64,000 nucleotides of DNA, from assembly GCA_011321815.1 (NCBI GenBank), contig DROS01000023.1:27653-91652 (forward strand). Direction: 5' to 3'. The notes under the pieces were generated by a model that was given only the letters and a program-made list of their open reading frames with translations, was not told the origin of the DNA and ran no database searches. This document shows positions 2,704 to 23,600 of this stretch, piece by piece. Numbering within the stretch: position 1 is the stretch's first letter; each line of letters begins with the position of its first letter. A program made the position numbers and the translations under genes. Source of the stretch: Gammaproteobacteria bacterium. Its GTDB lineage: Bacteria; Pseudomonadota; Gammaproteobacteria; SZUA-152.

Positions 2704-2742
2704 CCGGGTACTGTTTTTCTTCGCGGACTTTGCGTCCTTTGC

Positions 2743-2779: not shown

Positions 2780-2859
2780 CACAAAACAGACTGCATCCAT
2801 CATGTACCGTGACAAATATACCTCACATTGTAACGACTATGATGTTATCCACATGACTG

Positions 2860-4131: not shown

Positions 4132-4156
4132 AAGAATCAGACTACAAACATGTCAC

Positions 4157-4204
4157 TGTCCCGTTAACCCCCCTTGCTCTTTGAAAGAAAAAGTTAACGG
4201 GACA
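4157..4204. repeat. 12-bp perfect inverted repeat with a 24-nt spacer
   Basis: TGTCCCGTTAAC (4157-4168) and GTTAACGGGACA (4193-4204). Confidence 0.85.
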
Positions 4205-4405
4205 ATATGAAAACTTCCAATCAAATAATCGATTATTCGCCTTTTCATGCGCTACCCAAAAATGGAAAACAAATAATTTGTGCGAATTACGTACAAATCT
4301 GTTTTTATCTGGCTACCAATCCTGGTATGAGGAATGAAAATCCATCACGGTAATCACAATTTACGACGCCTTGATTTCAGGCAGACACCGTGCTGAAAAA
4401 TTAAA

Positions 4406-5341
4406 TTACAAATCAATACCACTGGCCGCTCTTCCCTTTTCCAGCCAACGGGCACAATCCGGTGACAAAGTCTTTTTTACTGCGGTGTGGTACAGGTCCA
4501 GGTCTTCATCATTCAAAAACTCACGCCACAAACCGCTGCCACACTTATACATATAATCACTTGGCCCATCTCTTAACACAACGTTCATTTCGGGTAATAT
4601 CTTGTCCATATTTTTGTGGATTTCTTCAAAACGGGTCCGCTGCCTGATGCCAGGAAGGTGTTCTTCATCAATGGTGATATCAAGAAAATCGGCAATACGT
4701 TTTATTTCACCTTCCGTATCATTTAATAAATCCTCGAAGTGCACCAGCAGGATATTCGGCAACTTTCTGAAAGACCACCAGCTTTGTGCATGATCAAGGT
4801 GGGACCAGTAAGGATATCCCTGAGTTTCCCATTCGAACCATGATTGTGAAATCCATTTCCGCCAGAAGCTTTTATCATCGCCCACATCAGGAGGAAATGA
4901 TCTGCCTATCAAGTCATCATAATCCGCTGCCTTTTTTATGATCTCGGCGGAAAGCCCCCTGTGATGATGCAATAAAGACATGAATGCATCACGTGTATCA
5001 CGGCCAACAACGATATACTTGAGCTGCTCAAAAAATGTTAAGCCATTCAAAGGCAGATGGGATTTTATTGATCGACGATGAGTCTGGGCCTCCAATGTTG
5101 CCTGCATGGGTTCAAAGGGACTAAAGCGCAATTCATACCAGGGGGAAATCTCACCAATAGGCCCGGGAATATTTCCATCCTGAAAAATCAGATTGGCGAC
5201 AATTACCTGGGTCCAGGTTGTGCCAGCCCTTTGTGATGTTGTTACCACCACATCGCCTTGCCGCGGCGAGAACCGATCCCATCTCTCGGGATCAAACACA
5301 TGGTGAACGCTATAATCATAGGTTTTTACGGGTTTTTCCAT
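4406..5341 (-). CDS. PAPS-dependent sulfotransferase (Sulfotransfer_1 / aryl-type)
   Basis: 5'-PSB-like loop DVVVTTSQRAGTTW, catalytic KSHLP, 3'-PB motif VGRDTRDAFMS, and LLVHFEDL. Confidence 0.9.
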   Translation of the reverse strand: MEKPVKTYDYSVHHVFDPERWDRFSPRQGDVVVTTSQRAGTTWTQVIVANLIFQDGNIPGPIGEISPWYELRFSPFEPMQATLEAQTHRRSIKSHLPLNGLTFFEQLKYIVVGRDTRDAFMSLLHHHRGLSAEIIKKAADYDDLIGRSFPPDVGDDKSFWRKWISQSWFEWETQGYPYWSHLDHAQSWWSFRKLPNILLVHFEDLLNDTEGEIKRIADFLDITIDEEHLPGIRQRTRFEEIHKNMDKILPEMNVVLRDGPSDYMYKCGSGLWREFLNDEDLDLYHTAVKKTLSPDCARWLEKGRAASGIDL

Positions 5342-5407
5342 AATTGTATGCTCCTGAAGTCATTGGTGGTAAACAAGTGCCTATATAACCTGTCCTGGGG
5401 TCAGCTG

Positions 5408-6388
5408 TTATACATAAGCAGTGGAAAATGGTATCTGGTTGCGCTTCATTGCATCGAGCAGCTTGGCATAATTCGTTTGACTGTTATTAAATGGCGTTAT
5501 CACCGGGAAGACATTCAACGCAGACTGTTTCCCCCGCCAATGGCTCACCAGGTTGGCCATAGTACCGGTGGGACCAAGATCAATATAACAATAACGCTCA
5601 TTATTAACGATTGACGTAAGGGCCTCCATAAGACGTATGGGTTCACGTGCTGTTTGCCAGAAGTGATCTCCATCCAGATATTCAATGAGGCCAGTGGTTA
5701 CGGTGGAATACAGGGGGATTTGTAATTTGCGGAAAGCGATATTATTCAACACGCCAGCATAAGCACGGTGAGCCGGGTCGATATTTCCTGAATGGTAACC
5801 AAACGCAACAGGAAGGGGTTGAAAACAAATATTCTCGCGGCGTAAGTATTTTTCTGCTTCGCGTATACCGTTAATGCTGCCTGCTATGACAAAATGTTTC
5901 CCATGACTGTCAAAGGCAATATCTGTTGAATCATACAAAATATCATTATTATGATAGATACTGACATCATCAAGTACCGCCAGCATGGCGCCAGACTCAC
6001 AGTGAGCATCAAAACAATCTCCTGCACTTGCAACCAGATGCACTGCTGTTTCGAACGTCATTCCTCCTGCGACAACCACAGCTGTATATTCCCCCAGGCT
6101 CATACCACACACCACATCGGGCATAATGCCTTCTTGTTGCAGTGTTTCTGCCAAAGCATATTCTATGGTAAGCAATGCTATATTTGATAAGCGGCAGTCG
6201 CTGAAATTATCTGATTTATGCTTTCTCGGGTCATACACAACATCAAGGATTGAACATCCGGTGACATCATGAACTATCTTCGCTAAACGCAGCATATTAT
6301 GCTCGAATGCCGGATGACATACTCGCAGATCATTTCCCATATGGTAATATTGGGTTCCCTGCCCTGAAAACAAAAAAACATTTTTCAT
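5408..6388 (-). CDS. AT-fold acyl hydrolase (PedC/PksD-like proofreading enzyme)
   Basis: FLFSGQGTQYYHMG N-terminus typical of the AH clade; nucleophile elbow GMSLG; GYHS instead of the malonyl-AT AFHS. Confidence 0.72.
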   Translation of the reverse strand: MKNVFLFSGQGTQYYHMGNDLRVCHPAFEHNMLRLAKIVHDVTGCSILDVVYDPRKHKSDNFSDCRLSNIALLTIEYALAETLQQEGIMPDVVCGMSLGEYTAVVVAGGMTFETAVHLVASAGDCFDAHCESGAMLAVLDDVSIYHNNDILYDSTDIAFDSHGKHFVIAGSINGIREAEKYLRRENICFQPLPVAFGYHSGNIDPAHRAYAGVLNNIAFRKLQIPLYSTVTTGLIEYLDGDHFWQTAREPIRLMEALTSIVNNERYCYIDLGPTGTMANLVSHWRGKQSALNVFPVITPFNNSQTNYAKLLDAMKRNQIPFSTAYV

Positions 6389-6409
6389 GTTAAAAATATT
6401 TTTTGTTGA

Positions 6410-9400
6410 TTAATCGGAAAACCACTGGCTCAGCAGTTTATTGATCTTTTTGTAGTGAAACAGGCTCAGAAAATGATGCCCATTTTTTATTTCATGATAT
6501 TCAGCGTCTGGTATTTTTTCGCTCAACTCCCGTGCAAATTTTGGCGGCATCAATACATCATCACCGCCACTGATAAGCAAAGTTCTGGCCCGGACATGCT
6601 CCGCTGATTCAACATGCCTGAAACGTGCAATCATCATAAAATAACTGTCAAGAATGCGTCGATTGGTAGTACACCAGACAAAACGTTCAATATGCCCTTC
6701 TTTTCTGAACGCCTTTATCTCGGGCATTTTGCGCAAAAAACCGGGCAGCTTCTGGAAATTTTCCTCAAATTCTTCAGCGCATTTAATGGAGAAATCCTCC
6801 GCTGAAATTGTGTATTCCTCAGATGACCAGGAGATGGTTGTGGTACTGATGAGCACAAGCTTGTCTACATATTGCGGATAATGTTTGCAAATGGTTTGCG
6901 CGACAAATCCCCCCAAGGACCAGCCGACCCAATGGTTTTTCTTATTCTGGATAATCTGACGTGTGACAAGCTCATCAATAACACCTGTCAGGATACCTGC
7001 CAGCTGTTCAAAATTATCAAGACCATCAACCCAGTCACTGCCGCTCAACCCCGGGTAATGAGGCACAATAATCCTGTATTTCCCACTCAGCCCCTGTAGT
7101 TGGCGAATCCAGATGACAGCACTGGAATTGAAGGGTGGCAGCAATATTACTGTCGGGCCTTCACCGCACACCAGACATTCAATGCGAACTCCATTCACTG
7201 ACACATTTTCAGTCATTATTTTATGGGTTACCCCGGAGCTGTTGTGGTAGGCATCCACATATCTTTTGATCGGCGCCAGTGTTTCTCCAAACTCCAGCGC
7301 ACCAATATCACCGACATCTTCTTTCTCAGGTGTTGGCGGATTATCATCAACCGATGATTCCGGGGCAGCCTGCCCATTGATAGTCGCCAGCGTATCAAGA
7401 TGTGAACTGAGCAGGGTACTGGTGTTGAATTCAAAAAGGGCAAACATATCCAGCGTCGGGTAAAACCGGCAAAGCTCAGTATGGATTTTGGTACCCATAA
7501 TAGAATCAATCCCCAAATCACCGAAAAGCGTTTTATCGGTGTAAACCTCGGGGAGCGCACCTAAAACCCGCTTCAGGGTGTCACGTACCCGTGTTAAAGT
7601 ATCGGTGCTTGCAATATCCAGGGCTGAAATATCTGGCGCCGCAATCGCCTGATCTGGGGCAGTATCTGTAACAGATACATCCACCATAGAATTTTTACCC
7701 TCTGTCACAGGGCTGACCAAGTCCGGCCGGAAAATATAACCCGGCAAATATGCACGTTTAGCCTTGGGGTCATGCTGGAAACCTTTTACCTTGCCAACTA
7801 CCCAGTTTTTCGCCACCGCCAGAAGCTCGGTAATACTTACCCCCATTCCCATCAATTCACTATGACCGGTTTCCTGCTCTTCGCCTGATATCATGGTGGA
7901 ATCAATACACCCTTCCAGATAAACTTTGAGCCGGGTTAACAATACATCCATGGAATCATCACAGATCAGCGCAAAGCGGTAACGACCGGCGGAACGTCCG
8001 CATTGTAATGTTGCGGCAATATTACGCACATTAAGTGCGGTGTTTAACAAGGCTTGTTCCGAACGAATGTATTGGTAGGTAACCCGTACCATATCAACAA
8101 GTTGTTCAGGCGTAGCGGCACTGAATGGAATAATATATTTAAAGCCCGATTCGTAATCAGGTTCTGTAACCTGAAATGATTCCGGCGCTTGTTCCAATAT
8201 CAGGTGTACATTGGTACCACCAGCCCCAAAGGAGCTGATGCCCGCCCGCCGCACAGGTTGTGATTCGCTCACCGGCCAGGGAGCCAGTTCTTTTTGTACT
8301 TTGAAAGGGATACGTGAAAAATCAATATTGGGATTCAGATTTTCATGATGCATCACATTGGGAAAATACTGTTGACTCTTTAATTGAAGTATTACCTTTG
8401 TGATCTGGGCAATGCCCGCCGCTGCTTCAAGATGACCAATATTCGACTTCAGCGAAGATATGGGACAACCTTCCGGCGGCACATTTTTGCCAAAAGCCTC
8501 GGACAGTGCCGACATTTCAATGGGGTCACCCAACGAAGTACCGGTACCATGACACTCCACAAAGGAAATACTTTGTGGCGATACCCCTGCGGCATCAAAT
8601 GCCTTGCGAATAGTGTCGCGTTGCGCATCGGGATTTGGCACTGTAAATCCCTGGGTACGGCCATCATTACCTGCTGCAACACCCTTGATGACAGCCAGCA
8701 CATTGTCACCATCCTCCTCAGCGCACTCAAGGGATTTCAACAAAACCATTCCCACCCCTTCACTGGGCACATAGCCGGTACCGCCCTCTGCAAAGGCACG
8801 ACAACGGCCATCTTTACTCAAGGCATTCTTATCGGAAAGAAATTCGTATTTACTGCGATGCAGGTTAAGATTTACGCCACCTGCCAGGGCCATTTCACAC
8901 AACCCAAAGCGGATAGCATTATAAGCATCGGCTATCGCATACAGTGAGGACGAACAGGCGCAATCAATTGCAATTGATGGCCCGGTAAGGTTGAAAAAAT
9001 ATGAAAGCCGGTTGGCATAGGAAAATATTTGTGAACTATAAGGCAACATATCGCCTTTACAGCGGTTGGATTCCGCAACAAGCTCGCTGTACTCATGAAA
9101 GGATGCACCAATATAAACACCAACATTACTGCCCTTGCCTCCCACCCACTGTACAGGATTATAACCAGCACTCTCGAAACATCGCCAGGTTTCCTGTAAT
9201 AACAATCGTTCTTCAGGATGAGTCATCAGCGCATCCCGAAAACTCATATTAAACTGTCCATAGTCGAAGTTCATCGGCTGGGAGAGAAACCCACCCCAAC
9301 GTAATTCATCCCCGGCAGCACGGTGTGTGTCGGGTACGGCTTCAATACAATCCCGTCCTTCTGCAAGTAATTCTGCAAACTGCAATACATTTTCGGCCTG

Positions 9401-11851
9401 GGGATAGCGGCCCGACAAACCAATAATGGCAACATCACTCACTGATGATCGTGCTGTCGCCTTGTGTGTTTCACTATGTAACCAGACCGAAGCCTTCGCA
9501 GCAGATCGTCGCTCCTTGCTGAGACTCAAACCGGGACTGCGCGCATCAATACGTACGGCGGCATCACGGATGGAACGCGCGGAATAAAATATTACGGGGT
9601 CCCTAAAACCGAGCAATGGTTCCAGGCGGGCAGTCAGCTCAGTAATAACCATAGAATTCAAGCCCAAATCGGTGATAGTCGCATCGGGGTCCAGGTTTTT
9701 CAGAGGGACTTCGCCAATCTCCGACAGATACCGACACAATATTTCAACAATCTCATCTTCCTTTGAGGTCTGTTTTTCCGCAACGGCCAGAATACGGGAG
9801 ACCTGTTCTATATCTGCTCCTGCCCTGGTGATTTCTTCAACCTTTTGCTGTTGAACCCCAATACGTGAAGGTATGTGTTCATCATATTGGTATGCGCCAG
9901 AGCTTACATGGCATTCTTCCATTGTAACCTTGTCCGCCGGGAGAGGTTGCTTTGCGTTGGATATACCGGCGCCACCTGTCTGCTTTAGCGAAGCCCCTGG
10001 CAAAAATAAATCAGGCAGCGGAAAATGCTGCGCGGCGAAGGGATAACCCGGTAAAGGTAACCGCCCTGGATTGGATTCATAGAATGTAGACCAGTCAATA
10101 TCTTCACCGTTGACCCAGGCTGCCGCCAGCCGATCCAGCCTCCCATTGGCAATCCAACGTTGGGTGAGCAGGTTTATTTCCTCTGTTTCCAGAAGGGCTG
10201 TCGCATTGTTGCAAATGCCCCGAAAAAAATTGTTCAACGTATTATCAGCCTCAAGACTGAACGCAGCCATCTGTTCCGCCAATTTCTTAAGATCACTTAC
10301 CACAAAAGCGACCCGGTGAGTCATCGGCACCCTCCCCAGCTGCAAGGTAAAGGCCAGACGCAACAAATCTTCTTCTTTTAATTTCGGCAGGTAATCTATT
10401 AATTCACTGACTCGCGCCTTGAGTTGGCCCTCTGTTTGCGCGGACAATACGATGCAATACGATTGATGGTTTAACCGTGCGGACTTTTCACTGGTAATAT
10501 TTTCGTTGGCTGTAAATTCTTCAACAATCACGTGCGCATTGACCCCACCTGCCCCAAAGGAGCTGACGCCGGCACATCGGGGCATATCGGCATAAGTTTC
10601 CCAGTCCGTGGTCTGGGTGATAAAACGAAACGGTGTTCCTTCAAGATCAATACCGGCATTTTGATTGTGCAGATGCAGGGTCGCAGGCAGGGTTTTGTGC
10701 TGCAATGCAAGAATCACCTTCAATAAACCGGCCATACCTGAAGCAGCCTCGGCATGCCCGATATTGCTTTTGACTGAACCAATACCGCAATGCGCCACCT
10801 CAGAAGCATCAAGGTTTTTCTGTTGATAAAGCGTAGAGAAAGCTTCCTTTAATGCGGTAATTTCCACAGAATCGTCCGAAGCACTGCTTGCACCATGGGC
10901 TTCGATATAACCAATTGCACGTGGGTCCACATCCGCCTTTTTATAAGTGTCCAGCAGAAGTTGTATTTGAGCTCTGGAATTCGGCACGGCAAGTGATGCA
11001 CTGTTACCGCTGTGGTTAACACGGCTGCCCCGGATTATCGCATGAATATGGTCACCGTTACGCTCTGCCTCAGCAAGCGGTTTAAGATACATGGCCCCAA
11101 ACCCTTCTGCGCGCACGTAACCATTGGCATCTTCATCAAATGCCTTACAACAACCATCAGGGGATAACACACCGGCACGACTGAATGATGTATGGCAAGT
11201 CGGCATCAGCAACGCATTTACACCACCAACAATAGCCGCATCACAATAACCGTTGTAAATGGCTTGCAACGCATGATCCACGGCCACCAGAGAACTGGAA
11301 CATGCCGTATCCACCGGTTCACTGGGGCCAAGCAGATCAAAAAAACTGGAAATACGGTTGGCCAGCATGGAAAAAGCATTGCCTGTTGAGGTGTACTCCA
11401 GCACATCCGTATCACTCATGCCCAGACGTTCAGCATAATCATGGTTTGTTACTCCGACAAACACACCTGTACGTGATCCGGAAATATCACAGGGACGAAT
11501 ACCGGCATTTTCCAGACAGTTCCACACCGTCTCCAGGCATTTACGATGCTGAGGGTCCATCAGCGCTGCTTCGTGTGATGAAATATGAAAAAAATCGGCA
11601 TCGAAGCTCTCAATACCGTCGACAAAACCACCCCAGCGTGTGGCTGTTTCATTTTGTATATCACTGGTATAGTTACGCCAATCCCAACGTTCAGTGGGAA
11701 TTTCAGTGATAACATTTCGCCCTTCCATGAGGTTCTGCCAAAAGACTTCAAGATCAGGCGCACCAGGAAATTGACCGCTTATTCCAACGATGGCAATAGC
11801 AGAATTTGTACATCCTGTTACTTTTTTTACGGTTTGTTTTGGCGCAGACAC
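6410..11851 (-). CDS. trans-AT PKS3: KS5(degenerate)-ACP-KS6-ACP-TE (alpha/beta hydrolase)
   Basis: KS5 has DTACSS / EAHGASSASDD / NIGHAE. ACP GLNSM. KS6 has DCACSS / HGTGT / NIGHLE. ACP GIDSI. Hydrolase has GWSLG and a C-terminal GHH. No AT, KR or DH. Confidence 0.92.
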   Translation of the reverse strand: MSAPKQTVKKVTGCTNSAIAIVGISGQFPGAPDLEVFWQNLMEGRNVITEIPTERWDWRNYTSDIQNETATRWGGFVDGIESFDADFFHISSHEAALMDPQHRKCLETVWNCLENAGIRPCDISGSRTGVFVGVTNHDYAERLGMSDTDVLEYTSTGNAFSMLANRISSFFDLLGPSEPVDTACSSSLVAVDHALQAIYNGYCDAAIVGGVNALLMPTCHTSFSRAGVLSPDGCCKAFDEDANGYVRAEGFGAMYLKPLAEAERNGDHIHAIIRGSRVNHSGNSASLAVPNSRAQIQLLLDTYKKADVDPRAIGYIEAHGASSASDDSVEITALKEAFSTLYQQKNLDASEVAHCGIGSVKSNIGHAEAASGMAGLLKVILALQHKTLPATLHLHNQNAGIDLEGTPFRFITQTTDWETYADMPRCAGVSSFGAGGVNAHVIVEEFTANENITSEKSARLNHQSYCIVLSAQTEGQLKARVSELIDYLPKLKEEDLLRLAFTLQLGRVPMTHRVAFVVSDLKKLAEQMAAFSLEADNTLNNFFRGICNNATALLETEEINLLTQRWIANGRLDRLAAAWVNGEDIDWSTFYESNPGRLPLPGYPFAAQHFPLPDLFLPGASLKQTGGAGISNAKQPLPADKVTMEECHVSSGAYQYDEHIPSRIGVQQQKVEEITRAGADIEQVSRILAVAEKQTSKEDEIVEILCRYLSEIGEVPLKNLDPDATITDLGLNSMVITELTARLEPLLGFRDPVIFYSARSIRDAAVRIDARSPGLSLSKERRSAAKASVWLHSETHKATARSSVSDVAIIGLSGRYPQAENVLQFAELLAEGRDCIEAVPDTHRAAGDELRWGGFLSQPMNFDYGQFNMSFRDALMTHPEERLLLQETWRCFESAGYNPVQWVGGKGSNVGVYIGASFHEYSELVAESNRCKGDMLPYSSQIFSYANRLSYFFNLTGPSIAIDCACSSSLYAIADAYNAIRFGLCEMALAGGVNLNLHRSKYEFLSDKNALSKDGRCRAFAEGGTGYVPSEGVGMVLLKSLECAEEDGDNVLAVIKGVAAGNDGRTQGFTVPNPDAQRDTIRKAFDAAGVSPQSISFVECHGTGTSLGDPIEMSALSEAFGKNVPPEGCPISSLKSNIGHLEAAAGIAQITKVILQLKSQQYFPNVMHHENLNPNIDFSRIPFKVQKELAPWPVSESQPVRRAGISSFGAGGTNVHLILEQAPESFQVTEPDYESGFKYIIPFSAATPEQLVDMVRVTYQYIRSEQALLNTALNVRNIAATLQCGRSAGRYRFALICDDSMDVLLTRLKVYLEGCIDSTMISGEEQETGHSELMGMGVSITELLAVAKNWVVGKVKGFQHDPKAKRAYLPGYIFRPDLVSPVTEGKNSMVDVSVTDTAPDQAIAAPDISALDIASTDTLTRVRDTLKRVLGALPEVYTDKTLFGDLGIDSIMGTKIHTELCRFYPTLDMFALFEFNTSTLLSSHLDTLATINGQAAPESSVDDNPPTPEKEDVGDIGALEFGETLAPIKRYVDAYHNSSGVTHKIMTENVSVNGVRIECLVCGEGPTVILLPPFNSSAVIWIRQLQGLSGKYRIIVPHYPGLSGSDWVDGLDNFEQLAGILTGVIDELVTRQIIQNKKNHWVGWSLGGFVAQTICKHYPQYVDKLVLISTTTISWSSEEYTISAEDFSIKCAEEFEENFQKLPGFLRKMPEIKAFRKEGHIERFVWCTTNRRILDSYFMMIARFRHVESAEHVRARTLLISGGDDVLMPPKFARELSEKIPDAEYHEIKNGHHFLSLFHYKKINKLLSQWFSD

Positions 11852-11910: not shown

Positions 11911-13050
11911 TCACTCATTGACCGGCTGCACATCGCCAAGATCAAAATATCCCTTATAACCCTGCATATAAATTGTTGCTTTTCGACCAAATAATGCAAT
12001 AGCCTGTGTTCGTGTTTCCAACACATCATCGTGATTTTTAACGGATACCCTGGTTCCCACAGGATAAGCGGCATTCCAGGCGGCAATCGTTTCCGCTGTA
12101 TTTTTAACCCCGGATTCGCTGTGACTGGTAACATCACCCTGAATGGCTTTCGCCTCTGGATCTTTTGCGGCAGATGCATCAGGCACAATTTCTGTATTAC
12201 TCTGGCCAAACTGTGTCTGTATTTTCTCAACAAGTGCAGTCAATACATGACCGGCACCTGTTTCCTCAAACTCCGTCACTCCCTGCTCAAGCATATAAGA
12301 AACACTGTCCAACCATTTAACTGGCCGGATAATCTGGGATGTCAGGTTTTCAATAATTTTTTCCTGTCGGTAAGGTTTTGCATGAACATTGGAAATAACA
12401 TCAATGGTTAAAGGGGAAAATTCAAAACGGCGAACATATTTCTTAAATTCAACCGCAGACGATTTCATATACCGGGAATGAAAAGCACCACTGGTATTTA
12501 GCGGAATGAACTTTATCCCATCTTCCGTAAAAATAGATTGCGCCCTGTTAATATCCTCTTCCAATCCCGAAATAACCGTTTGGTCATAGGAATTATGATT
12601 TGCAATATCTACCGTGGATAAATCATTGTTCTTCAGTAATTGGCTTATTTTCTTTTTGGTAGACCCCAAAATTGCAGCCATTGCACCTTTCGGCGCCAGG
12701 CTCATCAGCTCACCTCTCCTTTTAACCAGCTTCAATCCATCTTCAAAACTGATAGCGCCTGATGCCTGGAGTGCGTTATATTCACCGAGACTGTGGCCTG
12801 CCAAAAATTCCGGAAGATGTCCCGTTTTTTCGATTTTGTCCAGATAAGACATCGCACTGACCACATATAGTGCAGGTTGTGTGTACTGCGTAAAACCCAG
12901 TTGACGATCAGGGTCCTTAAGACACAGCTCCACAATTGAATACCCTAATATGTCATCGGCCGTTTGAACCATATCAGCATATTTTTCAAAAAGGTCTGCG
13001 CCCATTCCTTTATACTGAGATCCCTGACCAGGAAATATATAAGCTTTCAT
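11911..13050 (-). CDS. trans-acting malonyl-CoA:ACP acyltransferase with a C-terminal extension of about 100 aa
   Basis: FPGQGSQ, GHSLGEY, AFHS (malonyl-type). The AT is followed by a low-complexity linker and a small extra domain. Confidence 0.93.
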   Translation of the reverse strand: MKAYIFPGQGSQYKGMGADLFEKYADMVQTADDILGYSIVELCLKDPDRQLGFTQYTQPALYVVSAMSYLDKIEKTGHLPEFLAGHSLGEYNALQASGAISFEDGLKLVKRRGELMSLAPKGAMAAILGSTKKKISQLLKNNDLSTVDIANHNSYDQTVISGLEEDINRAQSIFTEDGIKFIPLNTSGAFHSRYMKSSAVEFKKYVRRFEFSPLTIDVISNVHAKPYRQEKIIENLTSQIIRPVKWLDSVSYMLEQGVTEFEETGAGHVLTALVEKIQTQFGQSNTEIVPDASAAKDPEAKAIQGDVTSHSESGVKNTAETIAAWNAAYPVGTRVSVKNHDDVLETRTQAIALFGRKATIYMQGYKGYFDLGDVQPVNE

Positions 13051-13154: not shown

Positions 13155-13904
13155 TTAACGACCAAATAACGCATTGATTTTTTCTCTTACTTCCGTATGT
13201 GAAAATGTCTTTTGATGCATAATCACCTCTTTCCTGACTATTTCCGGGAGATCATCACGCAAAGAAGAAACCAGATGATCTTTTAATATAATCAGTGAGT
13301 CTCTGGGTTTTTCAGCAAGCTCGGATGCTAACCGAAGTGCATCAGCCAGAACATCTTTTCTGGGTAGGACAGGAAACGGCACGCCGCGATTTTTAAGTTC
13401 TTCGCCGCGATATCTTGCGGCATTCATTAACATCTCATTAGCAAGACTGAAACCCAGTTTTTTTGGTAAAATATACGTGGCGCCCATTCCTGGTGTAAAA
13501 CCATATTTCATGAAATTTGTGGTATAAACACTTTCACGGCTTAAAATAACAAAGTCACAGAACAATCCCATTACAAACCCGCCACCGATTCCATGCCCCT
13601 GCATCGCAGCAATAACAGGAACCGGACATTCCAAGGCGAGCGAAAATATATCAATATCAGTAAATTTTATATTTCCCGCTTGCAGCAGCAATAACTCTTC
13701 CTGTGTGCCACCCGAAGAAAAATAACTGTCATATCCAGTCAGAATTACAACTTTTACAGTTTCATTCCTGCCAATGGACTCAAAAGATTCGATGAGACCG
13801 GAGATCAACTCTTTTGAAAACGTGTTTTTATGCAACCTGTCCTGCATGGTTATCTGGACAATTTGCGGATTAATTTCACGCAATTCAATGACTGATTCTT
13901 CCAA
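13155..13904 (-). CDS. Enoyl-CoA hydratase-like decarboxylase (PksI/ECH2-like)
   Basis: KNTFS...GYDSYFSSGG...GHGIGGG...YGFTPGMGAT...HQKTF, as in PksI-type proteins; position in the cassette. Confidence 0.9.
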   Translation of the reverse strand: MEESVIELREINPQIVQITMQDRLHKNTFSKELISGLIESFESIGRNETVKVVILTGYDSYFSSGGTQEELLLLQAGNIKFTDIDIFSLALECPVPVIAAMQGHGIGGGFVMGLFCDFVILSRESVYTTNFMKYGFTPGMGATYILPKKLGFSLANEMLMNAARYRGEELKNRGVPFPVLPRKDVLADALRLASELAEKPRDSLIILKDHLVSSLRDDLPEIVRKEVIMHQKTFSHTEVREKINALFGR

Positions 13905-13951
13905 GACATATCTCCAATAGGTTATTCTAACTTATGATTCAGGACAAAATA

Positions 13952-14722
13952 TTATACTTCCCAGGGGAATTTTCCGGTTTTCACATAACGGCTGATTTTC
14001 TCTCTGTTATCAATATCCGAAAACATTTCACTGTTTGCCCGAACCGCCTGGGATTTTTCCCGGACAATTAAGTTGTTCAAAGACAGCATATAGGTTTTAT
14101 ATTTGGCGACACTGGGTTTTGAAATACGCCGGAGCCTAAGCAGGTGCTTCCGTAATAATGAAACACTGTCCGCATCATAAGCATCGACCAATCCCCAGGA
14201 AAATGCCTGTTGTACCGATATCGGCTTGTTAAGCAATGTCATATAATGCGCCTTGCCATGTCCAATACGACGAATTAAAAATGGTAATACGCATGCAGGA
14301 AATAAACCGAATAGTAATTCCGATAAACTGAATGAGGCAGTTTCATCCGCAAGCACTATGTCACAAGCAGAGACAAAACCAACGCCACCTGCGTTAACCT
14401 TCCCCCGTACATGCGCAATGGTAATGTAAGGTCCTGCAACCAGCTCAGTCCAAAGATCATACAATGGCTCCGGGTCCTGCGCGTCCACATCACCAGCCCC
14501 CTCTGCCATGCCCTGCTCGATATCCCGAAAATCCGCCCCAAAACAAAATACCTCAGGCAGTCCTTCCAATACGACAATACTGCAGTCCGGGCCATACAAT
14601 TTAAGTGCATGATGACATTCGCGGATCAACTGATCATTTATGGTATTACCCGCTTCAGGACGATATAACTTCAGATAACAAACGGGGGCTTCCATTTTTA
14701 CCTTTATTGTTTGATAACTCAT
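13952..14722 (-). CDS. Enoyl-CoA hydratase-like dehydratase (PksH/ECH1-like)
   Basis: YQTIKV...FCFGADF...NAGGVGFV...LSELLFGLFPACV. ATG 14722 overlaps the HCS stop (ATGA). Confidence 0.9.
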   Translation of the reverse strand: MSYQTIKVKMEAPVCYLKLYRPEAGNTINDQLIRECHHALKLYGPDCSIVVLEGLPEVFCFGADFRDIEQGMAEGAGDVDAQDPEPLYDLWTELVAGPYITIAHVRGKVNAGGVGFVSACDIVLADETASFSLSELLFGLFPACVLPFLIRRIGHGKAHYMTLLNKPISVQQAFSWGLVDAYDADSVSLLRKHLLRLRRISKPSVAKYKTYMLSLNNLIVREKSQAVRANSEMFSDIDNREKISRYVKTGKFPWEV

Positions 14723-15978
14723 TGTGACCACTCATACAAACGATGATATTCTTTAATTTCCTTTAAAAACAAACGGGGCATATCTGATGAATTCCGAACG
14801 CCGTCAAGAAACCCCGTATCCAGCTTTACATTTCGTGTGCCAAAACGAACGGTGGTACTTTCCTTGATCAAGGCATCATATTCGTCCATTGACAATGGAT
14901 ACCGCTGATCCAACTTATCCGCAATATTGAATTGTTTCAGATACTCCTGGCTTTCTGCTGTCACGACGCCACTGAAAAACTCAGAACAACAACCAGACCC
15001 GTATGAAAAACACCCGACTCTTTTCGGGGAATAAAATTCGCCATGTTCGATGGTGCTGACCAAAGAAAGGGCGGTGGTCGCCCCCATAATGTTACCAACC
15101 CGCTGGCAATAGATAAGTCCTGGAAACACCCTTTCTTCAAAATCTGACTCAATAACATCGGCTTTTGCCTTGAGCATTTTACGCATCATGGTTCTATGGG
15201 CTCCTTTTATCATTCCTCCAAAAGGCGTATGAAAAGCAAGATAGGAAAAACTCTCCAGATAATTCGCATCGGGGACACGTTTTTGATATTCGGAAAAAGA
15301 CTGTTGCAAACAATCCAGATAAGATAATAAAGACAGATCAGAATCACCTGCCTCACTATCCGCCACTGGCCGACAAGTATCCATAACCTCAAATCCATAA
15401 TACCCATTGGCGCCAACATCCACCTGAAATATATAAGGACGGTCACTCACCAGCATCGCCGCGGCACCAGCACCGGAACTGGGTTCTGCGAAAGACCAGC
15501 CTTCAGACAACACACCTCCGCCTTCCGCCACCAGAAATCTTGAGATATCCGTCGCAATCACCAAAACTTTGGCGCCCGGCGATACCTGGGACAATACAAA
15601 ATTTATTCCTACCTGTAATCCTGTTGTTCCTGAATAACATGCGCTTTTAATTTCAAACAGCCGGCAATTCCGGTTTAACCCTAAATAATCATGCATATAG
15701 GAACTCATTGATTTCCCAAAATCAAATGATGATTCCGTACACGTAATAAGCATTTCTATTCGATCTTTTTCACTATCACTTAATGCATCTATAATTGGTT
15801 TTGCCGCATTGACACCCAATGAAACAGGATCTTCATAAGGCAAAGCCACGGATTTTTCTTTCATCAGCAAATTGTCAAACCGTGTTTTATCCAGACCACG
15901 ATGGCTCGCTAACTGGTCAACATCCAAATAAGCGCTACCGCCAAAAATATTCAGCATTTCAATTCCGACCAGTTGCAT
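14719..15978 (-). CDS. HMG-CoA synthase-like beta-branching enzyme (PksG/HCS-like)
   Basis: EDPVSLGVNAA, active-site SACYSGT, FHTPF, FSYGSGCCSEF. Confidence 0.95.
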   Translation of the reverse strand: MQLVGIEMLNIFGGSAYLDVDQLASHRGLDKTRFDNLLMKEKSVALPYEDPVSLGVNAAKPIIDALSDSEKDRIEMLITCTESSFDFGKSMSSYMHDYLGLNRNCRLFEIKSACYSGTTGLQVGINFVLSQVSPGAKVLVIATDISRFLVAEGGGVLSEGWSFAEPSSGAGAAAMLVSDRPYIFQVDVGANGYYGFEVMDTCRPVADSEAGDSDLSLLSYLDCLQQSFSEYQKRVPDANYLESFSYLAFHTPFGGMIKGAHRTMMRKMLKAKADVIESDFEERVFPGLIYCQRVGNIMGATTALSLVSTIEHGEFYSPKRVGCFSYGSGCCSEFFSGVVTAESQEYLKQFNIADKLDQRYPLSMDEYDALIKESTTVRFGTRNVKLDTGFLDGVRNSSDMPRLFLKEIKEYHRLYEWSQ

Positions 15979-16033
15979 ATAACTATCCTTTTACTCTGAT
16001 TATATTTTTAAAATATCACACGTATTTTTATAA

Positions 16034-17317
16034 TTAACGATGATTTTGAAAAACAATACTGGAATTAATTCCACCAAACCCAAACGAATTACTCATTGCA
16101 AGCTCGATATTATCCCTCTCAAATGTTGCCCCACTAAAACGAAGGTCTTGATCAATGGGGTTATCCAGATTCCGGTTAGGGTGAATAAACCCACCTTCCA
16201 TTTGCAGAACCGATGCAATGAATTCCACAACCCCTGCTGAATATAAACAATGACCAGTCAACCCCTTGGTTGAATTGACCCACAACTCTGACACATGATG
16301 TTTAAAAACACGCTTGATTGCCTCCACTTCAGTAGAGTCGCCCAGCGGTGATGAACTGCCATGTGCATTCAAATAATCAATTTCATGTGCCGAAACCCCC
16401 GCTCTGCGCAGCGCCCTATTCATCGCAGCAGCTTCCCCTGCAACATTGGGCTCAGAGGTACTGACACCATCAAGCTTCAGGGCACAACCCAGTACCTTTG
16501 ATCGTATCACCGCCCCTTTGGACTCAGCCACATCACAAGATTGTAAAATCACGCAAGCGCTCGCCTGACCATATACAAAACCAGCATGCTCAGCATCAAA
16601 GGGACGTGAGGCCTGGTCCGGTGATTGAAACTTATTTTTCCCGACCATTGCGCCAATATTGACAAACCCCTGCAACTCAATCGGTGATAAATCCGCCACG
16701 ATGCCTGTGACAAGGCAAGTATCCACAAAACCGGATTGAATCAGCTGCACCGCCTTTATAAGACCGACATTACCACTCGCCGAGGCACCACCAACCACAA
16801 ATCCCTCTCCTTCAATATTAAATATTTCACTGAGTACACCAACCTGATGACTGTCCAGAAATTGAAGCGCATACCTTGGTGACAAATATTCCGGGTCGGT
16901 TGCAAAACCTGCATGCAACCCATAACGATAATTTTGAGTTGTACTCTCTCCAGCAACAATGACTCCCAACCGTTCAGGGTCATTTTTCTGGGAAAACATG
17001 CGGGAATCCTGCCATGCTTCCAGCGCTGACAATACTGACGCCTGTACTGGAAAAGGTGATCGTCGTGCACAACTTTTCGCTTTTTGTAAAAGTTCTTCGG
17101 GAAGATCAGGATAACTGGCAAGGCCATCATTAAATGAAAACCCATTTATTTCAGCACCAATATCCACAGATAATTCTGGCCCTTCTCTTCCGGCCAACCG
17201 GGTGATACCCGAGGTACCATTTTTAAGTGACCGCGTGAAACTCGAAATATTGCCCCCGATAGAAGACACTATTCCCATACCGACAACAGCAACTTTTTTG
17301 CCTGACTCCTTTACCAT
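16034..17317 (-). CDS. Free-standing decarboxylating ketosynthase (PksF-like)
   Basis: Active Cys replaced by Ser (GASASGN); NAHGSSS, GHCL and SNSFGFGG retained. Confidence 0.92.
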   Translation of the reverse strand: MVKESGKKVAVVGMGIVSSIGGNISSFTRSLKNGTSGITRLAGREGPELSVDIGAEINGFSFNDGLASYPDLPEELLQKAKSCARRSPFPVQASVLSALEAWQDSRMFSQKNDPERLGVIVAGESTTQNYRYGLHAGFATDPEYLSPRYALQFLDSHQVGVLSEIFNIEGEGFVVGGASASGNVGLIKAVQLIQSGFVDTCLVTGIVADLSPIELQGFVNIGAMVGKNKFQSPDQASRPFDAEHAGFVYGQASACVILQSCDVAESKGAVIRSKVLGCALKLDGVSTSEPNVAGEAAAMNRALRRAGVSAHEIDYLNAHGSSSPLGDSTEVEAIKRVFKHHVSELWVNSTKGLTGHCLYSAGVVEFIASVLQMEGGFIHPNRNLDNPIDQDLRFSGATFERDNIELAMSNSFGFGGINSSIVFQNHR

Positions 17318-17360
17318 CCCATTTCCTTGCAATTACGTGATAATTACGGCTATTTGTAAT

Positions 17361-17600
17361 TCAGGTGTTATCAACCAAAACATCGACCATTTCTTCAATA
17401 TTTTCCACACCCCCAAAACTGACCAGCGGTAACTTTATCCCCAACCGCTCCATTGATAACATTACTATCTCTGTACGATCAATTGAGTTGGCACCCAGCG
17501 ATTTAAGGTTTTGTTCAATCTTTACACCATCAGAATCGACATCAGGCAATACCTCTGAAATCACATCTTTTACAATCAGAAATACATTTTTCTTTTCCAA
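17361..17600 (-). CDS. Donor ACP of the beta-branching cassette (AcpK-like)
   Basis: LGANSIDR signature. TTG start at 17600 after a GGGAG RBS gives 79 aa. Confidence 0.9.
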   Translation of the reverse strand: MEKKNVFLIVKDVISEVLPDVDSDGVKIEQNLKSLGANSIDRTEIVMLSMERLGIKLPLVSFGGVENIEEMVDVLVDNT

Positions 17601-17620
17601 AATCAACTCTCCCTTATTAA

Positions 17621-20600
17621 TCAATTGTAGAAAAACCAACTTTCGAAAAGTGGGCTCCGTGATGCTTTCCCCATAGTAATCCACTCATTTTCCTCGACCT
17701 GGGCACCCTTAATTTCCGGTGTTTCCAAGATTTCACGACGAGGCAGGCCGGCCCTTGAAATCCAATAGTGTTTTTTGCCAAAAGGATAGGTAGGTAATGG
17801 AACCCGGTTAAGGGTTTTCCCCTTATGTAATAAATCCCAGGGGATATTCCCTCCTTCGACCCAATATTCCCCAAGTTTTTCGAGATTTTTTTCTTGAAAC
17901 AGGTCATTAATAAATCGCCCATCAACGGAATTACGCTGACTTTCTCCTGAAAAAGTCAAAGGCACAGCGGGATATACTGAATCATTTACACCCAAATATT
18001 CCTTAATGCCGGTTATCAGTGATTCGCGGTCAGACACAATCATTGCCAGCCTGACATCCATTTGATCCCGTCCAACCTGAAGCGTATAAGCAAAACTGTC
18101 TAACGGCAGCTCTTCACTTTTTATCACATAATCCAACATCTGCCTTACAAGCAGATCAAGTTGTTTCTTATTACGTGCAGAAAATATGACGAGCTGAGCC
18201 GGGGTTGTGGCGCTTATTTTCTTCTGCCTGGGTATATATTCCTCCAGAATGACATGAGCATTCACCCCACCCATACCAAATGAGCTGATACCTGCCCTAC
18301 GTGGTATAGGCACGCCAGAATCATCGGATAATGCCTGCCATTTTTGTCCATCCTGAACGACAAAAAATGGGCTTCCTTCCAATTGTAAATAAGGACTCAA
18401 TGGAGCGGTGTGGATATTCTTTACCAGCATTGCATGCTTTAGCTGAAGCAATACTTTAATGACACCAATCACACCTGAAGCCAGCTCTGTGTGACCGATA
18501 TTTGTTTTGACGGACCCCAGCCCACAATACGCATTAGCAGTCAAAGATGCGCCTGTATCATTTGAAGGACTATGATGTTTGATCCCGTTAATTAACGACC
18601 TGAATGCCGTTTTAAGACCATCAATTTCAATGGAGTCACCCAACTGTGTGCCAGTGCCGTGAGTTTCTATATAAGTGACTGTTCGCGGATCAATGTTGGC
18701 TTCTTTATAGACCTTTTCCAATAATTGAGTTTGCGCTATGGGATTAGGCGTTGTTAATGAATGTGCCCGTCCCCCATGGCTTTCGGCACCGCCACAAAGC
18801 AAGCCATAGACATGGTCACCTTCTTCTTCGGCACGACTGAGTTTCTTAAGCAGTAAAATTCCAACACCCTCACTTCTTACAAAGCCATCGGCATCAGTTG
18901 AAAAAGTCTTACAGCGCCCATCTCCACTCAGCATACCTGCTTTGTCGTAGGCAATATGCCGTGCCGGGGATAACAATGTATTAACTCCCCCCACAATAGC
19001 CATTTCACAACCCTCATTTAATGCCATCATTCCCCGTCGAATGGCAACCAGAGAACTCGCGCATGCGGTTTCAATAGGCTCACTGGGTCCACGAAGATCA
19101 AGATAAAAACTTATACGGTTAGGCCCCACCGAAGGCTGCGTTCCTGTCGCAGTATACGCTTCAATTTCGCTGCCTGATTTTTCAATTAAACTGTCATAAC
19201 CACTATTCTCGGTGCCGATAAAGACAGCAATATTTTTCCCTGAAAGACTCTTTGGGCTATAACCTGCATCTTCTATGGCGCGATACACATACGTCATCAA
19301 CAAACGCTGCTGAGGGTCCATAAGCTCCGCTTCACGATGTGATATACCAAAAAAATCGGGATCAAATTCTGCCACCCCATTAATAAATCCGCCCCATGTC
19401 ATATGCGGTTTATGTTGACTTTTTTGACTGGAAGTGAAATCGTTTTTTGAATCCCAACGATCCACAGGTACTCTGGTAATACAATCTTTACCGGATTCCA
19501 AATTATTCCAGAAATCATCAAGAGTATCCGCCATCGGGAATTTTCCACTTATTCCGATTACCGCAACACGTTCCGAACAAGATTTTTTTTCAGGGTTCTC
19601 CCCGGTAATTTCCGCCCTCCTCGACAAGGGTTCATTATTTTTAACCAAACACCCTTGTTTGATTAATGAACGTATATTATCCGGCGTTTTGTTGCCTTCT
19701 TTCAATGAAGATAGACTTTTCTTTTTGTGTGGCGTTATTTCCTGCTGTTCTCGATAATATTTAATAATTTCGTCATTATGTTCCGACAACAGATACGTTA
19801 TCAGTTTTTCCAATGTATAATTTCCGAACAAAACCGCAGGCAATACTTCAATATCAAAGTATTGTGAAAGGCGGTGAGAAAATTCAGTCAAACCAATCGA
19901 ATCGAAACCAAACTCCGAAAAATTGGTATCCACATCTAATAATTCATAATTAATTTTTAATTGTTCATGGATTATTTTCTTAAGATCGGATTCAATATAA
20001 ACCCCAATGTCTGATGCACTTAATTGAATATTTTTTTTCTGGGCGAAACTGGGGGCGTTAAAGGTAGGATTATTAAAATTTCTGTCATTATTTATTCCCT
20101 GATAATTTTCTGCTTGTGATTCACTTATAAAGTGACACTGTAGTGAAGGCAATCCTTTGTCGGCAATAACAAACGGGGATGTGTTATATTGCACAAACGC
20201 CAGACCAAACACTTTCTCTATAAATTCACGATTTGAATACAGAAATTCACCATTTTTATGCAAGGTCTTATTCTGTATATCACCACTTTCCACTTCCCAG
20301 TCAACAACAAGTGATTTGCCACATATTATATTTTTTCCCTGAAACCCATCCAAACCGGTCACTTTCACTGTGCGATAAATAACGTGGTTATCACTTCCCG
20401 CGGACTGCTGCTTTATTATGTTTTTCCCAGATAAAAAATCACAGATAAAATCCGGATACTCCTGCTCTGGAACAGGGTTTGCATATATTTTGTTGAAGAT
20501 CTCTACAGACCGTGAAAATTCACATTCCACTTCAGAGCTATTATTTACTGAGCAATCGGATATTGTTCCGGCATAAAAAATACCGTTTATTTTGTGAGCA

Positions 20601-23600
20601 AGGTGATTCGTATTAACCAAACATGATTTTACATAAGACAATTGTAATAAATCATGGCTTATATACTGAATATCAACATTCAGGGTTTCGATTGTTTCTA
20701 ATTTATCCTTAAACGAATCAATCTTTTCTGAGCATATAACCAAAAATATTTTTGCAGCACCCCATTGGGACAGGTATTCCACCAATAAAACGCCCATTTT
20801 CTCACAATCACATGTAATCAAATATACCCCATTATTTTTTATTGGACTTATATCCAATTGATCGAAAACATCTTCAAAAACATCATACTGCCTGTTATCC
20901 ACTAGTGATAACATTTTTTTGGGGCGATCATGCTCAGAATAATTTTTATTATTATCAGATAAATAGACTTCCACTTCATATCCGATAACCTCTACACATA
21001 CATTACCTGCTTCATCACATACACTTATATCTACCTTAAATGTAGTACCACTAGATGACCCTCCTTTTGTATAACGTACCCAGCTATGCATGATTCCACC
21101 AAGGGAAGAAAATATTCTTATTTTTTTTACAGAAACGGGATGAGAATCTGCTAACAGGAATAAATCACTATGCAACCTTTCCCTGTTTTCCCCTTTTTTT
21201 ACTTCCTTTTCGATGACATTACTAACCCCCTTTATTATGGCTATCGCCGTCTTGCTCACCAGCGTCATTGGAACTGGATGTAATACATAATCAACGCCAT
21301 CTTCCAGTGAATAATCTGGCAAACAATGCCGAACGACAGCCTGACCATCACCAAAAAAAACCTTTTTAAGGCCTAAATCACCGGGCACACAATCAATATT
21401 CAATAACTCATAAACCTCATCACATTGTTCTGGGTTTAATGTAGAGCCATTAATATCTTCCAAAATATTGGTGATATTTATATTTTCAACGGGGGACTGT
21501 AATCCCAATGAACCAACACCTTGAACATGAATTATTTTTTCAGGGGAATCACTTTCCATTGAGAAAATATTATAATTTACTGATTTGAAATTATTATTTT
21601 CATCAAATTTTATTTCATATAAATCAATAAACAACTTGATTGGCTCTTCTTCAACAACCACATCCGAAAACCATTTTGTATTATCCAGTTCAATATTTAT
21701 GTTTTTATGGGCGTCACCTAAAGCAGCTATAATTGCAATTCTAGCCATTTCCAGAAAAACCATGTTTTCCATGACTGCAATATTGTGAGTTGTGTTTTTT
21801 TTGAAAAAATACTCACTGCCATCAAATACCGAATAATAAATCTGAGAAAAAATATCTGAATCATTAAACTGTACAAGTGGGTGTATGACAATAGAAGAAG
21901 GTACCGTTTCAGAATGCACCTCACTTTTTTGGGTTATCGGTGCGCTCACCCAATATCGTTCTTTGGAAAAAGGATAAGTTGGTAAAATAACTTTATTAGG
22001 TTTTTCGTGTTTATAAAGTATATTCCAATCTACACGAATGCCATTAACCCACAAATCCAGATATTCCTCCGTCACTCCCTTCTTTACCCAGGCGATTAAT
22101 AATTTCTCAGCATCCGGGTTATCCTTGAAACGGGATATTATTTTACTACCGGATTTTATATTACCTTGATGACACCCATTGATATTTATTTGTTTACCGA
22201 TGTATTTATCCAGTTTTTCCAATAAATCCGACATAGAATGAATAACAAATACAACACGCTCATCCATAGGGTCACGCCCGACTTGTAAAGTGTAGGCCAC
22301 CTCAGATAATTTTGGCATGCCGGAAGCGCTATTCGACAAACACGCCTTGAGATAATTTGACAGGTTTACTACCACATCCATTAACCTGTCTTTGTTTTTT
22401 GCCGAAAGTGGAAGAATGACAGGAGCTGAATTCCGGTTGGCGACATCCAATACATGACGATCATTTTTATAGCGACTGTCCTGTATTTTGTACTCCTCCA
22501 AAACAATATGTGCATTCGCCCCGCTAAAACCAAAAGAACTTACCGCCGCCATACGTTTTCCATGTTTCGGTTCTGGCCAGTATTTATAATCTGTGCTGAC
22601 AAAAAATGGAGAATGATCAAAATCAATAATATTATTGGCTTCTTTAAAGTGCACAGATGGAACATATTTATTATGCTTCAAACATAATAATGTTTTTATC
22701 ATACCGGCCACTCCCGCTGCGTAACTGCCATGGCCAATATTTGATTTCACCGAACCAATTGCACAATATTGATTTCTTTTGGTTACATTCTGGAAAGCAT
22801 TTGTTAATGCCTGAAATTCAATGGGATCACCCAGCGGCGTTGCTGTTCCATGGGCTTCAACGTATGTAATATCATCAGGGTTGATTTTGTATCTTTGGTA
22901 AATACTGCGCAGCAGACTTTCCTGGGACCTGGCACTTGGCGCAGTAATGCCATTGGTTTTCCCATCCTGATTAACGCCCGAGCCCTTGATAACACCAATA
23001 ATATTATCGCTATCCTTCTCGGCCTGTATAAGCGGCTTTAACATTACGACACCACAACCTTCAGAAAAAACCGTACCATTTGCTGATTTATCAAATGTAA
23101 AGCACCGGCCATCTGTCGATTGCATGCGCACTCTTGATGTTAAAATATGTGCCAATGGTGTGGAAAAAACACTGACGCCACCCGCAATGGCCAAATCACT
23201 TTCTCCAGTGCGTATACTCATGCACGCAAGATGTATTGCGGTCAGTGATGATGAACATGCTGTATCAACTGAAAGCGAAGGCCCTTTTAAATTGAGGAGA
23301 TAGGATATACGTGCCGCTAATATTGCGCTGGAAGTCCCCATAAAAGACTGGCCATTTGTATCTTCCCCACTCATTGCAAGCAGCCGCTCATAATCCCCCA
23401 CTGTGCAACCAACAAAAATTCCACAGTTTCTGGCACTTAATGATTCTGTTGAATACCCCGCACTTTCTATGGTTCGCCACGCCTCTTCCAGAAATATTCG
23501 TTGTTGAGGGTCCATTAATTCAGCTTCAGATGGCGATATATTAAAGAACAGTGGATCAAATTTGTCGATATCACCAATAAAACCACCCCATTTTGAATAT

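Follow-up and report, generated by a model that had tools for sequence, protein, structure and literature searches.

A trans-acyltransferase polyketide synthase operon with a non-reducing terminus and a stand-alone sulfotransferase: a predicted route to a sulfated phenolic or pyrone lipid

Which hydroxyl group is available to a sulfotransferase (ST) that closes the operon of a polyketide assembly line? The question is raised by a 64,000-nucleotide stretch of DNA from a Gammaproteobacteria bacterium (contig DROS01000023.1, positions 27,653 to 91,652; hereafter the window), in which three minus-strand genes share the interval 4406–11851: the terminal polyketide synthase (PKS) gene PKS3, the acyltransferase (AT) gene AT2 and the ST gene. 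They belong to a trans-AT PKS operon that spans 36000 to 4406 on the minus strand with ST at its 3' end, in which the genes follow each other in the order fatty acyl-AMP ligase (FAAL)-like starter enzyme, PKS1, PKS2, beta-branch cassette, AT1, PKS3, AT2 and ST, and in which the intergenic gaps from the FAAL gene through ST do not exceed 115 bp. An earlier note on this DNA had taken the unreduced terminal modules, a thioesterase (TE) and an 'aryl-type' sulfotransferase to suggest a sulfated pyrone or phenol; the observation is confirmed here and the interpretation is partly supported. Our reading, to which we assign a probability of about 45%, is the prediction from gene content that the cluster makes a sulfated phenolic (resorcinol) or pyrone lipid.

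The unreduced end of the assembly line

The ~33-kb operon, all large frames of which are open, constitutes one assembly line with a beta-branch. Its modules lack ATs and retain ketosynthase (KS)-linker remnants, the ATs are free, the cassette for beta-branching is complete and tandem acyl carrier proteins (ACPs) carry the Trp flag, as expected of a trans-AT PKS with a 3-hydroxy-3-methylglutaryl (HMG) synthase-type beta-branch. PKS3 (6410..11851; 1813 aa) is read as KS*-ACP6-KSc-ACP7-alpha/beta-hydrolase and contains zero reductive domains. KSc, the last elongating KS (8057..9433; PKS3 residues about 807–1265), is highly conserved and keeps its Cys/His/His residues intact, and neither ACP6 (9563..9739; Ser733) nor ACP7 (7421..7591; Ser1450) bears a Trp flag. 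The stretches from KS linker to ACP are each shorter than ~100 aa, which is too short for a ketoreductase (KR), and the cut PKS3 fragments gave zero Pfam matches to reductive domains; a hidden KR in PKS3 was rejected on both grounds. The KSc-ACP7 module likewise leaves no space for a KR in the window or in the related loci L001, L004, L007 and L009.

PKS2, with the domain order DH*-KSa-DH*-KR*-ACP-KSb (DH, dehydratase; asterisks mark degenerate domains), does contain a KR, but a degenerate one. In KR* (20123..20830; residues about 1335–1570), the sequence TCDCEKMG stands in place of the GGxGxxG motif, which reads GGAGGLG in the working KR of PKS1, and the domain matches just positions 1–97 of the 180-position KR profile at 22–25 bits. 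As judged by eye, the glycine-rich NADPH motif is absent from KR* of all seven full-length PKS2 orthologues, and the Ser/Tyr/Asn positions vary freely among the six that were aligned by script, a set without the window PKS2 and its 93% twin P0123, which did not fit the pattern used to cut out the domain. A KR* that is divergent yet active was therefore rejected, the NADPH glycine motif being lost in every orthologue and the Ser/Tyr/Asn residues being unconserved. The adjacent DH5* (20963..21883) is missing both its catalytic His and its catalytic Asp. The claim of the earlier note that no functional KR follows the beta-branch thus holds, since PKS3 has no room for one and the KR of PKS2 lacks the NADPH motif and conserved catalytic residues.

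The beta-branch itself could be placed upstream of these modules, as had been proposed. PKS1 has the domain order KS-DH-KR-ACP-DH*-ACP-KS-DH*-ACP-ACP, and a Trp six residues past the phosphopantetheine Ser is found only in the tandem ACPs at its C-terminus, ACP3 and ACP4 (24936..25505; Ser3011 and Ser3126; GLDSIVGVEW). The same position is occupied by Phe in ACP5 of PKS2 (19790..19987; Ser1645), by Leu in ACP6 and by Ile in ACP7. The Trp-flag rule for beta-branch ACPs has strong but not absolute predictive value, and Phe occupies the flag position in some genuine beta-branch ACPs (PMC10006238). Keto groups would be lost if the terminal KS-ACP modules were beta-branched as well, but this is unlikely given that the Trp flag is confined to ACP3 and ACP4. 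The cassette (13155..17684, minus strand) comprises a donor ACP, a decarboxylating KS, an HMG synthase and the enoyl-CoA hydratase-type enzymes ECH1 and ECH2.

Three ACP-bearing modules without a working reductive domain consequently follow the branch point, namely KSa-DH*-KR*-ACP5, KSb/KS*-ACP6 and KSc-ACP7, and consecutive KS-ACP modules without an active KR, DH or enoylreductase are one characteristic of an aromatic- or pyrone-forming non-reducing terminus. The middle module includes an unusual junction: PKS2 ends in an intact KSb (18323..19570) and PKS3 starts with KS* (10517..11803; PKS3 residues 17–445), with no ACP between them (17621–18000 / 11750–11851). KS* has its Cys/His/His residues, and its HGTGT motif has decayed to HGASS in the window and to HGAGC in L001. 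KS* is absent from L004 and L007, where PKS3 begins with an ACP and so forms a normal split module with the terminal KS of PKS2; it is present in L009, L013 and L016, and of these the L009 copy was checked and has its HGTGT motif intact. Because KSb and KS* adjoin without an ACP, and because KS* is missing in L004/L007 and decayed in the window and L001, one of the two KSs appears to be redundant. Pairwise identities among the KSs of the window are 36–44% and are little informative for substrate clade. In L009 the PKS3 orthologue (192–5098) is split into two frames, KS-ACP-KS and then ACP-hydrolase, and the tail of the first frame reads out of frame; on this contig of 3x coverage the split is probably an assembly frameshift.

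The chain is presumed to leave ACP7 through the C-terminal alpha/beta-hydrolase of PKS3 (6413..7156), in which Ser1645 (GWSLGG), Asp1765 and His1793 form a triad that is invariant among homologues of 31–100% identity. In having such a triad and in following the final ACP, the domain resembles a thioesterase. It matches PF00561, PF12697 and PF12146 (Abhydrolase_1-type) and gave no match to PF00975, the type I PKS thioesterase family, to which more distant PKS-terminal homologues give weak matches. Its nearest relatives, in sequence and in predicted fold (model pLDDT 86), are metagenomic esterases, 3-oxoadipate enol-lactonase, acyl-homoserine lactone (AHL) lactonase, BioH and meta-cleavage-product hydrolases, and polyketide synthase thioesterases are not found among the top 50 fold neighbours. 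In a search of 1.84 billion representatives, the best relatives of the domain were mostly C-terminal domains of proteins of 1000–7500 aa; all five large hydrolase-bearing relatives that were examined are trans-AT PKS termini, and two of the five share the KS-ACP-KS-ACP-hydrolase layout. Since homologous domains end many other trans-AT PKSs, the hydrolase appears to be a recurrent trans-AT PKS release domain, for which the designation TE used in the earlier note fits the function but not the family (PF00561/PF12697 rather than PF00975). One further relative, the PKS P0188 of 6831 aa, ends in a hydrolase that shares 50% identity with that of the window.

The sulfotransferase and its association with the cluster

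ST (4406..5341, minus strand) is a stand-alone enzyme of 311 aa of the type dependent on 3'-phosphoadenosine 5'-phosphosulfate (PAPS). It matches PF00685 (Sulfotransfer_1) with E=6.6e-37 and 127.7 bits against a cut-off of 22. Its 5'-phosphosulfate-binding (PSB) loop reads SQRAGTTW, with R38 at the position where relatives carry Lys, and all 47 homologues compared retain G40-T41-T42, the catalytic H95 and the 3'-phosphate-binding R114 and S122. The PKS-linked subclade of ST proteins (the window, P0003, P0005 and P0006) shares the Lys-to-Arg exchange in the PSB loop, as in insect retinol dehydratase, and has KCGSGLW or KGANGLW in place of KGTNGRW at residues 266–272. The predicted structure (pLDDT 93.6) has the SULT fold, with Foldseek E values of about 1e-14 and TM scores of 0.70–0.77 to SULT1E1, 1D1, 1A1 and 2B1. 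ST thus shares its Pfam family, fold, PAPS-binding loops and catalytic His with SULT1A1, SULT1E1, SULT1B1 and insect retinol dehydratase; it differs from these eukaryotic enzymes in being bacterial, in lying inside a PKS operon and, except in the case of retinol dehydratase, in the PSB-loop Arg, and the identity is 22–24%.

These resemblances do not point to an acceptor. The top fold neighbours of ST are SULT1E1, SULT1D1 and SULT1A1, with SULT1 (phenol) and SULT2 (alcohol) enzymes interleaved, so that the structural model was uninformative as to acceptor type; phenol and alcohol SULTs score alike against ST both in sequence and in fold. Among sequences in the PDB, retinol dehydratase is the top match and, like SULT1A3, SULT1B1 and SULT1A1, lies at about 1e-18, whereas Teg12 (1.6e-3) and StaL (0.014) are marginal. 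The term 'aryl', on which the earlier note had leaned as a substrate clue, is only the name of a family; because the sequence and predicted fold of ST match SULT1 and SULT2 enzymes about equally, it does not constitute substrate evidence.

A gap of 66 bp separates ST from AT2, which precedes it in the operon. ST directly follows a PKS3-type terminus in L001, L004/L005, L007/L008 and L009, and an AT pair in L010, the upstream part of which is cut off. Homologues of 88%, 77% and 76% identity stand directly after the orthologous PKS3 (or PKS3 and AT2) in three further lineages, in each of which the genes beyond ST are unrelated. In the high-GC locus L009, with an ST of 59% identity, the order is KS-ACP-KS-ACP-hydrolase, an acyl hydrolase (AH)-AT didomain and ST, with overlapping stop and start codons; in L010, the ST homologue (63% identical) again stands after an AT pair. 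The adjacency is therefore kept in at least five diverged clusters at ST identities of 59–88%, and the arrangement is not due to chance: a position that is maintained across diverged lineages with different flanks marks ST as a genuine cluster member. ST homologues of ~50% identity are found in ordinary-metabolism, non-PKS contexts. At 90% identity, ST falls into a sequence cluster of 27 members, which were drawn from NCBI, JGI, ENA and Logan assemblies and include Gammaproteobacteria metagenome-assembled genomes and a hydrothermal-vent metagenome.

Within the operon, conservation is highest at the terminal end. ST and the hydrolase share 88–89% identity with their L001 counterparts (86–89% for PKS3 and ST), compared with 49% for the middle of PKS2. 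KS-ACP-KS-ACP-hydrolase termini without a nearby ST occur in L013, L014 and L016, of which L013 and L016 are short contigs. The occurrence of homologous termini without ST implies that the hydrolase releases the product alone and that ST is an add-on; from this distribution, the non-reducing bimodule with its hydrolase appears to be the older unit, and ST a tailoring addition in one sub-clade.

The proposed product and the alternatives

With three modules lacking a working KR or DH past the branch, the ACP7-bound product is predicted to be a 3,5,7-trioxoacyl thioester (3,5-dioxo if ACP5 is branched) carrying a lipid-like, methyl-branched and unsaturated tail. The Ser-Asp-His hydrolase would take this chain off ACP7, and the poly-beta-keto end could cyclize either by a C2–C7 aldol reaction, giving a 6-alk(en)yl-resorcylic acid or resorcinol, or by enol-lactonization, giving a 4-hydroxy-2-pyrone. 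With PAPS as donor, the cytosolic SULT-fold ST would then O-sulfate the head group, once released, on its phenol or enol hydroxyl, which would yield an anionic amphiphile; in this scheme, ST would be a tailoring enzyme that acts on the free product, outside the release chemistry. The acceptor is reached by exclusion. KR1 of PKS1 is the sole intact KR of the cluster and is paired with an intact DH1 (His and Asp present), DH2* and DH4* retain only their His, as in double-bond-shifting domains, and profile assignment of the operon open reading frames (ORFs) detected no oxygenase (including P450), short-chain dehydrogenase/reductase (SDR), free KR or other free reductase. Therefore no aliphatic hydroxyl is expected, and with no other hydroxyl predicted, the enol or phenol hydroxyl of the cyclized terminus is the only predicted acceptor of ST. 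The step from unreduced chain to sulfated pyrone or phenol in the earlier note is accordingly supported by the unreduced terminus, the conserved ST and the exclusion of other hydroxyls, with the acceptor itself predicted.

Several known systems resemble parts of this scheme. In psymberin-type trans-AT lines, the terminal modules are read as isocoumarin-forming (PMC7196800), and, as in the window, the last modules are unreduced and the poly-beta-keto end is expected to cyclize to an aromatic or lactone head (PMC7196800); the window differs in its Abhydrolase_1-type release, its FAAL starter, its one beta-branch and its dedicated sulfotransferase. PAPS enzymes sulfate triketide pyrones (PMC6731281) and resveratrol-type phenols (PMC11677658). 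In the caprazamycin pathway, a PAPS-dependent enzyme sulfates the enol hydroxyl of a polyketide pyrone (PMC6731281), a reaction that in the case of the window is a prediction. There, however, the pyrone comes from a type III PKS, and the enzyme concerned, Cpz8, matches PF17784 (Sulfotransfer_4) at 213 bits, whereas ST belongs to PF00685. The Cpz8 sequence was reconstructed from the OCR text of PMC6731281, Supplementary Data 1; a tblastn search of ST against cpz8 gave no match (E>1), and Hoch_6098 in the same file was also unmatched, whereas AtSOT12 in that file was found at 4e-7. The caprazamycin parallel drawn by the earlier note is thus retained as a functional analogy and set aside as homology. 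Homology of ST to Cpz8, StaL or CurM-ST was rejected or is very weak in sequence searches (StaL at 0.014).

A number of points weigh against the proposed product. The KSb|KS* junction blurs the count of elongations, which is most likely three and possibly four. ACP5, with Phe at the flag position, could be branched, which would shorten the run of keto groups from three units to two; a pyrone would still be allowed and would even be favoured. Genes elsewhere in the genome could supply a trans-acting KR or hydroxylase, the starter acid itself could bear an OH or NH2 group, and the SULT fold fails to separate phenol from alcohol acceptors, SULT2 and retinol dehydratase lying near the SULT1 scores. 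An alternative that we regard as unlikely, though as the most probable of the rivals, is that ST sulfates some other hydroxyl or amine, either a secondary alcohol that depends on a KR or hydroxylase gene lying outside the operon or a group of the FAAL-activated starter; the terminus need not then be aromatic. Alcohol and steroid SULT-fold enzymes do score nearly equal to phenol enzymes against ST, L013, a more distant KS-ACP-KS-ACP-hydrolase cluster, adjoins a free SDR, so that trans reduction occurs in the wider family, the starter acid could be of more than one kind, and the FAAL is represented by its N-terminal lobe only. This is countered by an operon in the window that has no SDR, P450 or other oxygenase, by the pairing of KR1 with an intact DH1, and by the co-variation of ST with the non-reducing terminus and the hydrolase, the best-conserved parts of the cluster. 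It is decidedly improbable that the chain stays linear and escapes sulfation, for example by being hydrolysed and decarboxylated to a beta-diketone or methyl ketone, with ST serving another substrate in resistance, detoxification or signalling, or that the cluster is partly decayed, as its truncated FAAL and KS|KS junction might indicate. The FAAL without a C-terminal subdomain, a loading ACP that is not evident, the decayed HGTGT of KS* and the frequency of ~50% identical ST homologues outside PKS clusters would all agree with such a state, whereas the open large frames, the conservation of the arrangement including ST at 59–88% ST identity, the at least 27 near-identical metagenome copies and the 66-bp spacing of ST from AT2 in the same operon speak against it.

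In the CurM and olefin synthase (OLS) systems, with their ACP-ST-TE order, a sulfotransferase and a hydrolase are likewise associated with the last PKS ACP, and ST and the hydrolase could form a release machine with sulfate as the leaving group, either in the manner of CurM/OLS, where hydrolysis and decarboxylative elimination after beta-sulfation leave a terminal alkene, or in that of retinol dehydratase, where elimination follows sulfation. The two are adjacent and co-conserved in five lineages, and retinol dehydratase, the top PDB sequence match, shares the PSB-loop Arg with the PKS-linked ST subclade. We nevertheless consider this very improbable. The CurM sulfotransferase is embedded, belongs to another family and acts on a KR-made beta-hydroxyl, and the CurM thioesterase decarboxylates; in the window, ST is a free SULT-fold enzyme and the hydrolase is esterase/enol-lactonase-like, and the PDB matches to ST at E<=10 include none of the CurM or OLS sulfotransferases. 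The last module is without a KR in every lineage, leaving no beta-hydroxyl to sulfate, the hydrolase has generic esterases and lactonases, but no polyketide synthase thioesterase, as its 50 nearest neighbours in fold, and homologous KS-ACP-KS-ACP-hydrolase termini exist without ST. The lack of a KR in the last module, of an embedded ST and of a PKS-type TE together disfavour a CurM-like route. An enol version of it, in which ST would sulfate the enol of the terminal beta-keto thioester and the hydrolase, with decarboxylative loss of sulfate, would generate a terminal alkyne or allene, is barely credible. Hardly more probable is a role of the sulfated pyrone or phenol as sulfate carrier for a second, PAPS-independent sulfotransferase, which the earlier note had listed among its options. 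The chemistry has a precedent in the caprazamycin system (Cpz6/Cpz8/Cpz4), where Cpz4 hands on the sulfate that Cpz8 has placed on a triketide pyrone (PMC6731281). By contrast, Cpz8 is of another family, PF17784, and a check of size and Pfam content found no Cpz4-like aryl-sulfate sulfotransferase, sulfatase or type III PKS among the window ORFs; with the Cpz4-like partner absent from the window, the sulfate-donor role is without contextual support. A ~33-kb assembly line with a beta-branch would also be a costly way to make a mere carrier.

Other components of the locus and implications of the cluster family

The FAAL-like adenylating (starter) enzyme at the 5' end of the operon (34567–36000, minus strand) aligns only to positions 1–464 of the ~580-residue FAAL models, its C-terminal lobe being missing, and PKS1 opens directly with a KS without an evident loading ACP. 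AT1 (11911..13050, minus strand) is a canonical malonyl-CoA:ACP transacylase with the motifs GHSLGE, Arg and GAFHS and a FabD score of 332 bits, above the cut-off. AT2 (5408..6388, minus strand) is an acyl hydrolase-like trans-AT paralogue of PF00698, in which alignment of its motifs with those of AT1 and the L009 AH-AT didomain revealed GMSLGE for GHSLGE and the loss of the malonate-binding Arg; it scores weakly against the FabD model (107 bits, with a cut-off of 261 bits) and, from these motifs, looks like a proofreading acyl hydrolase instead of a transferase. Its counterpart is fused to a canonical AT in L009 and L010 and is absent at that position in L004 and L007.

Past ST, 577 bp separate the operon from the next gene (2860–3828), which encodes a 322-aa secreted protein with a signal peptide; it had zero Pfam or NCBIfam matches, so that profiles assigned it no function, and the gene that occupies this place in L001 is 88% identical to it, the other relatives being without it. 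With every gene of the operon assigned, the remaining large ORFs of the window encode a His kinase, a transporter, tetratricopeptide-repeat (TPR) proteins and a DUF3570 protein. Upstream of the operon, a region of ~1 kb (36001–37043) contains no ORF of at least 60 aa and no Rfam family match, the Rfam scan of the whole window having returned zero matches; this stretch may serve the cluster as its promoter or regulatory region. The GC content is uneven, with 35–42% in PKS1 and PKS2, 43–48% in PKS3, AT2 and ST and 47–54% in the flanks, and this composition, together with the pattern of divergence, suggests that the upstream half of the operon has evolved faster or has exchanged modules. Among the relatives, L007/L008 have a gene for a di-haem cytochrome c peroxidase (CCP)/MauG-type peroxidase (4893–6254) inserted between AT1 and PKS3, which could provide an extra oxidative tailoring step, and L004/L005 have a second PKS locus (13602–20936; an ACP protein followed by AMP-ligase-KS-KR-ACP) ~2.7 kb downstream of ST.

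A named or characterized version of the cluster was not found in the literature, and full-text literature searches returned no paper in which a trans-AT PKS cluster has a sulfotransferase of its own. The cluster family is an orphan, and its combination of parts is new: the terminus is non-reducing, the release domain is esterase-like and the SULT-type sulfotransferase stands alone. If the proposed product is correct, a modular trans-AT PKS would make alkyl-resorcinol or alkyl-pyrone lipids, which is usually the task of type III PKSs, and would be coupled to a SULT-family enzyme. The cluster offers a bacterial SULT for which a definite candidate substrate can be named, as well as an esterase/enol-lactonase-like candidate release domain found repeatedly at the ends of trans-AT PKSs, with hydrolysis or lactonization as its possible chemistry. 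The cluster family recurs in uncultured, marine Gammaproteobacteria sampled in hydrothermal-vent and other metagenomes, and a sulfated amphiphile, if it is indeed produced, could have ecological relevance in these communities as a lipid, surfactant or signal.

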